A DNA stretch of 63,977 nucleotides, counting the filler, from Folioceros fuciformis (taxonomy: Eukaryota), in NCBI GenBank assembly GCA_049999805.1. It is 18 parts of 18 records of this genome, joined end to end, with 100 filler letters (N's around TTAATTAATTAA, not from the genome) between each part and the next. Parts side by side here need not be neighbours in the genome. Positions count along the whole stretch, not along the records: positions 55,909 to 63,977 come from JBNGIO010002196.1; 17 more parts are not named here. One strand, written 5' to 3'. Below the pieces are notes generated by a model. The model was given only the letters and a program-made list of their open reading frames with translations, did not search any database and had not been told where the DNA came from. Position 1 is the stretch's first letter. Every line of letters begins with the position of its first letter. Made by a program: the position numbers and the translations under genes. Shown here one piece after another: positions 62,686 to 63,670 of the stretch.

Positions 62686-63670
62686 ATGATGGCCGCCAGT
62701 AAACCAAATGTCGCTGTCTTGGTTGTGGCCCTGCTGGGCCTTGTCGCTCTGGCTACGCTGCCGAGCGTGAGAGCAGACGGTGCACGGTGCACCGGGGCGG
62801 GAGACTCGCTCGGCCTTCTCAAGACCTGGATCCACCACGCCCTCAAGCCCCTGCGCCTCTCGCCTTTCTCGGATTGCGACCAAAATTTCCGTGCGCTCTG
62901 CATCCCCGCCACCGCGCAGCTGCTGGAGAATCACGAGGGCCGCCACAAATGCGTCTACGAGGACATCGACGGCCACTTCCGCGTCGGCGTCGGATACCGC
63001 CTCGACAGCGAGCGGGATACTCGCAGGAAGGAGCTCGGTGCGCTGCTCGCGGACTACCAGAAGGTCGGGCCGGGAATTCCATTTCAATTCATCCGTTTGG
63101 TTGTGCGTCCGCAGCCGGATCCTCTTGCGAAGCTTTGAGATTGAAATGTTGTCTTTCTTTGTCGGCTCGCCGTGCTTGTGCTGCAGGTCCTGGCAGGAGA
63201 GACCTGTCTGAACGACTTCCAGATCAACGCCTTGCTGGCGCTGGACGCGAAGCGCGTTCTTGATCAGGCCGCGGACGAGGTGCAGGCCCTTGACCAGTTC
63301 TGCTGTGATGTCGCGGCCGTTTTCGGGGACATCGTGCATTCAGCTGGTACGTACCTCAACCTTCTTCACGTGCGTGCTCCTTGCCGGCTCATTCGAGACG
63401 AGAGCAATCAGGCGAGGCGGGAGCGTTTCTTACGATGCGCTGCTCACGGTATGATTCCATGTCATCGTGGCAGGGCGGAAAGCGCTCGACGGCAGAGATT
63501 TCCAGAGCTTCATCGAGAAGGCAAGTGCTAAGCGGTGGGAGGATGCTGCCGAGGAGCTCAAAGACACCAGCTGGTGTGACAAGCACAGGAATCGTTGCCA
63601 GGACAACATCGAAATCGTTAGGAAAGGCTGTGGTTCATCGTCCACTTTCAGCTTCGGGCGTAGCGATTAA
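62686..63670 (+). CDS. Secreted T4/phage-type (GH24-like) lysozyme homologue, 3 exons, 244 aa
   Basis: Exons 62686-63063, 63187-63346, 63474-63670 splice in frame; signal peptide (VLVVALLGLVALA...VRA-D); HEGRHKCVYEDIDGHFRVGVG aligns with T4L [21 protein letters not shown]; C-terminal AKRWEDAAEELKDTSWC resembles T4L QKRWDEAAVNLAKSRW. Confidence 0.82.

Follow-up and report, generated by a model that had tools for sequence, protein, structure and literature searches.

A predicted secreted T4-lysozyme-fold protein of an old streptophyte family encoded in the genome of Folioceros fuciformis

I analysed a stretch of DNA of 63,977 nucleotides from the Folioceros fuciformis assembly GCA_049999805.1 (the whole stretch is called the window) and found that an intact lysozyme-like gene lies on its plus strand at positions 62686-63670. 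With near certainty, the product is a member of an old family of streptophytes and is folded like phage T4 lysozyme, as a homologue of it is modelled to be; it is predicted to be secreted and rich in disulfides. Phage-type lysozymes are textbook enzymes of phages and bacteria. In the window gene, three exons with GT-AG introns are joined into a spliced coding sequence (CDS) of 735 nucleotides, which encodes 244 amino acids and a stop codon without any internal stop codon. The parts of the gene are as follows.

62686-63063, plus strand: exon 1, amino acids 1-126, with the ATG at 62686 and the donor AAG/GTCGGG, frame and splice sites having been read; it encodes the signal-like N-terminus, an N-terminal extension with two Cys residues, helix A and the beta-hairpin lobe, in which the catalytic-loop motif lies.
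62686-62775, plus strand: predicted signal peptide, amino acids 1-30, with a putative cleavage site after V-R-A judged by eye.
62920-63006, plus strand: catalytic-loop region, amino acids 79-107, located by HMMER alignments and column counts.
63064-63186, plus strand: intron 1, 123 nucleotides, GT..AG, phase 0, after the D-Y-x-K codons.
63187-63346, plus strand: exon 2, amino acids 127-180, with the acceptor CTGCAG/ and the donor CTG/GTACGT; it encodes the long connecting helix and a C-C pair.
63347-63473, plus strand: intron 2, 127 nucleotides, GT..AG, phase 1, within the Gly codon after H-S-A.
63474-63670, plus strand: exon 3, amino acids 180-244 and the stop codon, with the acceptor GGCAG/ and TAA at 63668-63670; it encodes the C-terminal lobe, the KRW..AA..L...W helix, R220 (which matches R145 of T4 lysozyme) and three Cys residues.
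63670-63675, plus strand: AATAAA hexamer overlapping the stop codon, a possible polyadenylation signal.

An in-frame stop codon precedes the first in-frame ATG of the gene. Six combinations of donor and acceptor sites were tried, and one alternative (acceptor 63483) also gave an open frame, with the loss of three residues that are present in the relatives. Full-length relatives can be aligned with the three exon translations over their entire length, and the spliced protein is 45-57% identical to them (E 1e-50 to 1e-67). The initial annotation, made from the DNA before any homologue was considered, had described an intact three-exon GT-AG gene for a protein of 244 amino acids with ten Cys residues and both T4 lysozyme patterns, and on this the reading of the sequence and the alignment of the homologues agree. 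No second copy of the gene was found within the window.

The N-terminus of the protein is hydrophobic; the Kyte-Doolittle mean over 15 residues reaches 2.79 at residues 10-24, and V-R-A/D follows. Read by eye from the hydropathy, this is a predicted signal peptide, as had been proposed, and the aligned relatives also begin with a hydrophobic stretch. The mature protein is predicted to be about 214 residues in length and acidic, and it is probably secreted and disulfide-rich. The ten Cys residues are at positions 35, 64, 72, 89, 133, 165, 166, 214, 221 and 232. In the family core, seven Cys residues are invariant and an eighth is nearly so, while two additional Cys residues in the N-terminal extension are found in the window protein and in its nearest partial relative, P0001. 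An extension of 35-45 residues between the signal peptide and the core is common to the window protein, the Sphagnum members and P0001. The region with the two extra Cys residues corresponds to 62788-62877 of the window (amino acids 35-64), and the extension is modelled as disordered in the Sphagnum member P0034.

When a profile of the family was compared with the Protein Data Bank (PDB), T4 lysozyme was the best match (E 8.9e-6), with profile positions 51-203 lying on T4 lysozyme residues 6-156, and all of the 60 rows listed were T4 lysozyme or its fusions. Exon 1 alone gave weak T4 lysozyme matches (E ~0.4), which were placed exactly on the catalytic loop. An AlphaFold2 model was obtained from an alignment of 29 rows for P0034, a member from Sphagnum fallax which is 52% identical to the window protein. 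In the core of this model (residues 90-260), the mean predicted local distance difference test (pLDDT) score is >90 in most blocks of ten residues. A helix comes first in the model, followed by a beta-hairpin lobe, then by a long helix and finally by a helical lobe; the N-terminal extension is unstructured. The best Foldseek matches to the model were T4 lysozymes, with target-normalised template modelling (TM) scores of 0.74-0.77 and root-mean-square deviations of 3.0-3.9 A over about 160 alignment columns with 14-18% identity. In a VIA search, which is independent of Foldseek and covers 48,161 representatives, rows 1-45 had Z scores of 16.5 to 10.2. Some of these rows are named as T4 lysozyme constructs, and those titled after other proteins are taken to be T4 lysozyme fusions, judged by their numbering. 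The same search gave Z scores of 14.3 for PHAb11, 13.6 for pesticin, 13.1 for P22 lysozyme, 12.8 for the DLP12 endolysin, 11.9 for the SpmX muramidase domain and 11.5 for a fungal GH24 muramidase, the next fold being chitosanase at 8.6. For the Ceratodon member, the ESM Atlas gave 30 neighbours by features, each of them a PF00959 cluster, and hhalign aligned the family with a natural T4-like phage lysozyme over 139 columns (E 2.3e-4, probability 44%). A T4-lysozyme (GH24-type) fold had been proposed for the gene together with a structural comparison with T4 lysozyme. The profile search of the PDB, the homologue model, the ESM look-alikes and hhalign all point to this fold, the homologue P0034 matching T4 lysozyme with Z scores up to 16.5.

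Some observations tell against a simple assignment to the phage lysozymes. The fold was modelled on the homologue P0034, not on the window protein. None of the three exon translations, scanned singly, matches Pfam Phage_lysozyme (PF00959); among 21 full-length members, two match it at 17.1 and 19.2 bits, so that the gathering cutoff of 22.3 bits of the Pfam check suggested in the initial annotation is not reached. The PHROG lysozyme families are likewise touched by two of the 21 members. A tblastn search with the member P0032 against 50,697 phage records touched 458 records at a best E of 0.6, which is not significant, with the listed matches on T4-like lysozyme genes. A scan for the family motifs gave 38 pattern matches in IMG/VR and 40 in 185,579 prokaryote genomes, none of them confirmed, a result that excludes only close relatives carrying these motifs. 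As far as these comparisons of sequences go, the kinship of the family with T4 lysozyme is real but remote.

Is the gene peculiar to this plant? The initial annotation had allowed for an isolated acquisition in one plant, and this does not hold. An exhaustive HMMER search of exon 1 against 1.84 billion cluster representatives gave 17 matches, of which 16 are genuine and carry common motifs and one is spurious. A profile built from full-length members found 42 proteins among 5.8 billion, in a search that scored only the 8000 candidates with the most words in common. The members named in this search belong to Ceratodon, Sphagnum, Physcomitrium and Riccia; their cluster mates extend the list to more species of Sphagnum and to Closterium, Chara and Spirogloea. 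Algal members are known from Closterium sp. NIES-67 and NIES-68, Chara braunii (GBG88992.1) and Spirogloea muscicola; moss members from Physcomitrium patens (two paralogues, XP_024383519.1 and XP_024362075.1), Ceratodon purpureus (two) and five Sphagnum species (e.g., KAH8934987.1); and a liverwort member from Riccia fluitans (KAL2609797.1). Among the 42 matches, no name is that of a vascular plant, although the same database contains fern, lycophyte, gymnosperm and angiosperm proteins. A word-sharing search of exon 1 against longer proteins scored none of its 4728 candidates, which reflects the limit of word sharing and not absence. The window protein keeps all 22 residues (seven of them Cys) that are invariant in 21 full-length members, as well as 27 of their 30 near-invariant residues.

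On the evidence of these homologues, the family is old and has been found so far in Zygnematophyceae, Charophyceae, mosses, a liverwort and the window plant. It has been passed down vertically with two conserved introns. Since members occur in streptophyte algae, mosses and a liverwort, any transfer would have to be ancient, and the searches of phage and prokaryote genomes pointed to no phage or bacterial donor. The records seen annotate the members as "hypothetical", "uncharacterized" or "unnamed protein product", and lysozyme is not among their annotations. The novelty of the gene had been said to depend on orthologues not being widespread and characterised; the orthologues are widespread in non-vascular streptophytes but are not characterised. 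No prior description of the plant and algal family was found in the literature, although the supplements of surveys of horizontal gene transfer in plants may list it, and structure-based signatures (Gene3D, SUPERFAMILY) and AlphaFold DB may already tag members as lysozyme-like.

Two of the algal members differ in architecture. The Closterium member (P0019 / P0002), of 397 amino acids, carries a tandem of two lysozyme-like domains, both complete, after a single signal-like N-terminus; the others have one domain. In the Chara braunii member (P0004, GBG88992.1), the core is preceded by a long N-terminal extension, about 100 residues in length, that is acidic and rich in Asp. The spurious match to exon 1, P0015, is a protein of 1950 amino acids whose E of 2.7e-6 comes from eight short stretches. 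It was dropped as a low-complexity repeat protein; its repeat of about 60 residues is rich in Ser, Val, Arg, Pro and Cys and was treated as a compositional false positive.

The window protein contains both the E-G...Y.D..G...GVG and the KRW..AA..L...W pattern, which HMMER places on residues 6-35 and 122-138 of T4 lysozyme. Amino acids 79-108 cover the first of these segments, with E84, D93 and R99 placed on E11, D20 and T26 of T4 lysozyme. The equivalents of Y18, G23, G28, G30, W138 and R145 of T4 lysozyme are conserved across the family. In T4 lysozyme, R145 pairs with E11. An invariant Asp (D107 in the window protein), in an L-D-D-D stretch 23 residues after the Glu, is without a counterpart in T4 lysozyme.

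What might the protein do? The likeliest role, to which I give an even chance, is that of an extracellular peptidoglycan-cleaving enzyme. Glu84 would be the general acid, held by Arg220 in the way Glu11 is held by Arg145 in T4 lysozyme, and Asp93 could be the base in the window member. Members without that Asp may employ another carboxylate or a single-Glu reaction of the lytic-transglycosylase type. Outside the cell, the glycan strands of peptidoglycan would be cleaved, and the biological role may be the killing of bacteria or the release of peptidoglycan fragments at the plant surface. I infer this substrate, catalysis and role from the sequence, and the antibacterial or symbiont-control function suggested in the initial annotation is conjectural.

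Several features of the family speak against such an enzyme. In the Glu column (E11 of T4 lysozyme), 22 of the 27 aligned rows have Glu, and five have Asp. In the D20 column, where the loop alignment may be off by a residue or two, Asp is found only in the window protein, Glu once, and Leu, Lys, His, Ser or Thr in the remaining 25 rows. In the T26 column, 24 of the 27 rows have Ala, and the window protein has Arg (R99). The protein cores of all members are acidic (isoelectric points of 4.7-5.7); bacteriolytic lysozymes are cationic. In these alignments, Glu alone of the Glu-Asp-Thr trio is kept across the family, while the window protein has the Glu and the Asp, with Arg in place of Thr. Of the catalytic loop claimed in the initial annotation, only a part is preserved, with the Glu conserved; the Asp is confined to the window member, and Thr has given way to Ala in the family and to Arg here. 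The Asp-for-Glu rows all come from a moss-like sequence group, and in Physcomitrium one paralogue has Glu (P0072) and the other Asp (P0043), which hints at sub-functionalisation after duplication.

These substitutions and the acidity of all members fit a protein of the lysozyme fold with lost or changed catalysis, which I regard as possible but somewhat unlikely. Such a protein might be a glycan binder or a hydrolase retargeted to another polymer. In the first form, it would be secreted to sense or sequester fragments of peptidoglycan or chitin; in the second, it would hydrolyse another beta-1,4 polymer (chitin, chitosan, or a wall component of the plant or alga itself). The fold matches include SpmX, a non-lytic co-option of a GH24-type domain (Z 11.9), and chitosanase (Z 8.6), and the invariant Asp of the L-D-D-D stretch without a T4 lysozyme counterpart also suits changed chemistry. 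However, what the whole family keeps, namely the Glu with its Arg partner, the Gly-rich hairpin and the Trp in the C-terminal lobe, fits a maintained active site, and the window member retains both carboxylates.

Another possible substrate lies inside the cell. The protein might hydrolyse the glycan strands of plastid peptidoglycan, which forms a thin wall around the chloroplasts of streptophyte algae and bryophytes, alongside the endopeptidase DipM in plastid division, although I consider this improbable; to my knowledge, no glycan-cleaving partner of DipM has been described. The idea is attractive because the members come from wall-keeping groups and because DipM is not a lysozyme-type enzyme. 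The named members belong to groups with reported plastid peptidoglycan or genes for its synthesis (PMC9434261, PMC12681378), and DipM, which has LysM/LytM domains and is not of the lysozyme type, is reported to be a peptidoglycan hydrolase required for chloroplast division in Physcomitrella (PMC4015805). It also agrees with this that no angiosperm member is found among the 42 matches. On the other hand, the N-terminus resembles a signal peptide for the endoplasmic reticulum rather than a transit peptide, the 8-10 Cys residues suggest folding in the secretory pathway, and the 42 matches include no named fern, lycophyte or gymnosperm member, though the pathway is reported to be kept in ferns, lycophytes and a gymnosperm (PMC9434261, PMC12681378). 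There is, then, a small chance that the family represents the missing glycan-strand hydrolase of the plastid wall, a phage-type lysozyme acquired before land colonisation, with which the host would remodel or split the wall of its chloroplasts beside DipM. In a weaker form of this idea, the family may release peptidoglycan fragments that serve LysM-receptor immunity where the corresponding angiosperm enzymes are lacking.

Some Physcomitrium and Sphagnum entries have the UniProt name "Pectinesterase inhibitor domain-containing protein". It is very unlikely that the family is pectin methylesterase inhibitor (PMEI)-like, as this automatic name would have it. The name is what speaks for it in the sources, together with a general likeness, the protein being small, secreted by prediction, helical and Cys-rich as such inhibitors are. 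However, PF04043 gave no match at E up to 10 in eight members (including three so named) nor at E up to 1 in seven other members; the model has a beta-hairpin and helical lobes, and its strong structural matches are lysozymes throughout. No PMEI four-helix-bundle entry is among the Foldseek and VIA rows listed, which does not exclude that fold. The name given to P0072, P0043 and P0091 looks wrong, in view of the missing PMEI Pfam match and the lysozyme-like modelled fold (P0034).

The gene also has to be placed in its genome. The window is made up of 18 short contigs, each of about 1.5-8 kb, with 17 identical linkers (N44-TTAATTAATTAA-N44) between them within 3716-55908, so that arguments from neighbourhood are valid only inside one contig. 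The final linker ends at 55908, and 55909-63977 is one linker-free contig that carries the lysozyme-like gene along with the following plant genes.

Within 55909-63977: exon 1 of RPL36A (Pfam Ribosomal_L44, E 1.8e-4).
59681-60610, minus strand: intronless PDX1 gene.
62120-62191, minus strand: tRNA-Pro(CGG) gene.

The G+C content of the lysozyme-like CDS is 0.61, and 0.75 at third codon positions (GC3); the respective values for PDX1 are 0.63 and 0.80, and the flanks have 0.44. In a comparison with sequencing runs by shared words, two DNA runs of one sample, which may be the source sample, contain 0.83 and 0.77 of the words, and a run from a different study, presumed to be RNA, contains 0.42. 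In a PDX1 tree, the window PDX1 falls within the embryophyte clade (support 91/89), where it forms, with two unnamed sequences, a lineage of its own outside the mosses, the seed plants and the Adiantum group. This tree resolves little below the embryophyte level, and its named rows are without hornwort or liverwort PDX1. Because of the position in the tree, a land plant host is supported, and a non-seed plant is likely.

The introns were compared through the open reading frame (ORF) fragments of relatives from genomic contigs. All seven fragments of the exon 1 type stop or diverge directly after D-Y-[DE]-K-V. Each of the 11 exon-2-type fragments starts at ...Q/V-Y-x-G, and ten of them stop or diverge behind H-S-x-G (or H-S-A-E-G), the other one, P0065, diverging earlier. 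Both exon-3-type fragments start at the second intron position. In this main set, 19 of 20 fragments thus break at the two intron positions of the window gene, and a second set adds eight more (P0001, P0003, P0005-P0009 and P0013) that break at the first. As read from these fragments, both intron positions are common to the window gene and the moss copies.

The lysozyme-like gene is a genuine, intact nuclear gene of a land plant, probably a non-seed plant. That its contig is a plant contig and not microbial contamination had been argued before from RPL36A, PDX1 and the tRNA-Pro; this is upheld by the moss-shared introns, the host-like GC3 and the PDX1 tree. It is highly unlikely that the gene is a contaminant from a microbe or phage, or that it entered this one plant by a very recent transfer: the fold is typical of phages and the assembly is fragmentary with short contigs, but the two GT-AG introns at moss-shared positions, the host-like codon composition and the plant neighbours PDX1, RPL36A and tRNA on the same contig rule against it, and neither confirmed motif relatives in IMG/VR or the 185,579 prokaryote genomes nor a phage tblastn match better than E 0.6 were found.

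The two-lobed fold is common to the family, to phage T4 lysozyme (gene e) and to endolysins of the GH24 type such as P22, DLP12 and PHAb11 (Z 12.8-16.5, TM ~0.75). Like T4 lysozyme, the family keeps the Glu, the Gly-rich hairpin, the Arg partner and the KRW..AA..L...W helix, and the best pairwise phage matches of P0032 all lie on T4-like e or gp5 lysozyme genes, none of them being significant. Unlike T4 lysozyme, to which it is ~16% identical, the family stays below the Pfam threshold and has not conserved the Asp and Thr of the trio. It has eight conserved core Cys residues, where T4 lysozyme has none at those positions, and it differs further in its predicted signal peptide, its acidity and its spliced eukaryotic gene. 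SpmX is bacterial, is associated with the cytoplasmic membrane and serves localisation rather than lysis. Its muramidase domain in Asticcacaulis (PDB 6h9d, Z 11.9) is a GH24-type domain kept in a cellular genome. The GH24 muramidase of the fungus Trichophaea saccata (PDB 8b2s) is a secreted eukaryotic enzyme with a GH24-type domain (Z 11.5 over 146 residues). By the title of its entry, it has an SH3-like wall-binding domain, whereas members of the plant family have one domain, or two in tandem in Closterium.

The closest described analogue of the family is the group of co-opted GH24 lysozymes of bivalves; the fungal 8b2s is also close. In Ren et al. 2017 (PMC5303276), the phage-type bivalve lysozymes are described as co-opted, with introns gained, duplicated, and shown to be antibacterial. 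As in those animals, a T4-type lysozyme would have become a lasting part of a eukaryotic lineage, over hundreds of millions of years. The bivalve genes are significantly similar to phage lysozymes in that account (PMC5303276), whereas no phage gene is significantly similar to the plant and algal family in pairwise comparison. Lysozyme-active plant chitinases and a transferred plant GH25 lysozyme, a transfer mentioned in PMC5303276, are also secreted and are proposed to act on bacterial peptidoglycan; these enzymes (GH18, GH19, GH25) belong to folds and families unrelated to the T4-lysozyme-like family. Compared with the described eukaryotic GH24 proteins, the plant and algal family is far more diverged from phage genes, has an eight-Cys core, is acidic and is without two of the three classical catalytic residues.

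The family appears to be a conserved, secreted, disulfide-rich branch of the T4 lysozyme fold that is common to the closest algae of land plants, mosses, a liverwort and the window plant; in the databases searched, vascular plants seem to be without it. It may be a candidate for the way in which early land plants handled bacterial walls or the wall of their own plastid, and it offers a natural experiment in which the active site of T4 lysozyme seems to have been rebuilt with the Glu alone retained. The finding would be modest if the protein is an ordinary weak muramidase, and larger if a plastid peptidoglycan target or a new chemistry proves true.

At the other end of the contig, there is a further element on the minus strand.

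55910-57900, minus strand: decayed retroelement with reverse-transcriptase fragments in two frames.

Two flanking retroelement ORFs were tested and had no Pfam match. The ORFs at 56703-57014 and 57018-57245, which are adjacent and in different frames, gave sub-threshold matches to Pfam RVT_1 (E 6e-4 and 3e-3, respectively).

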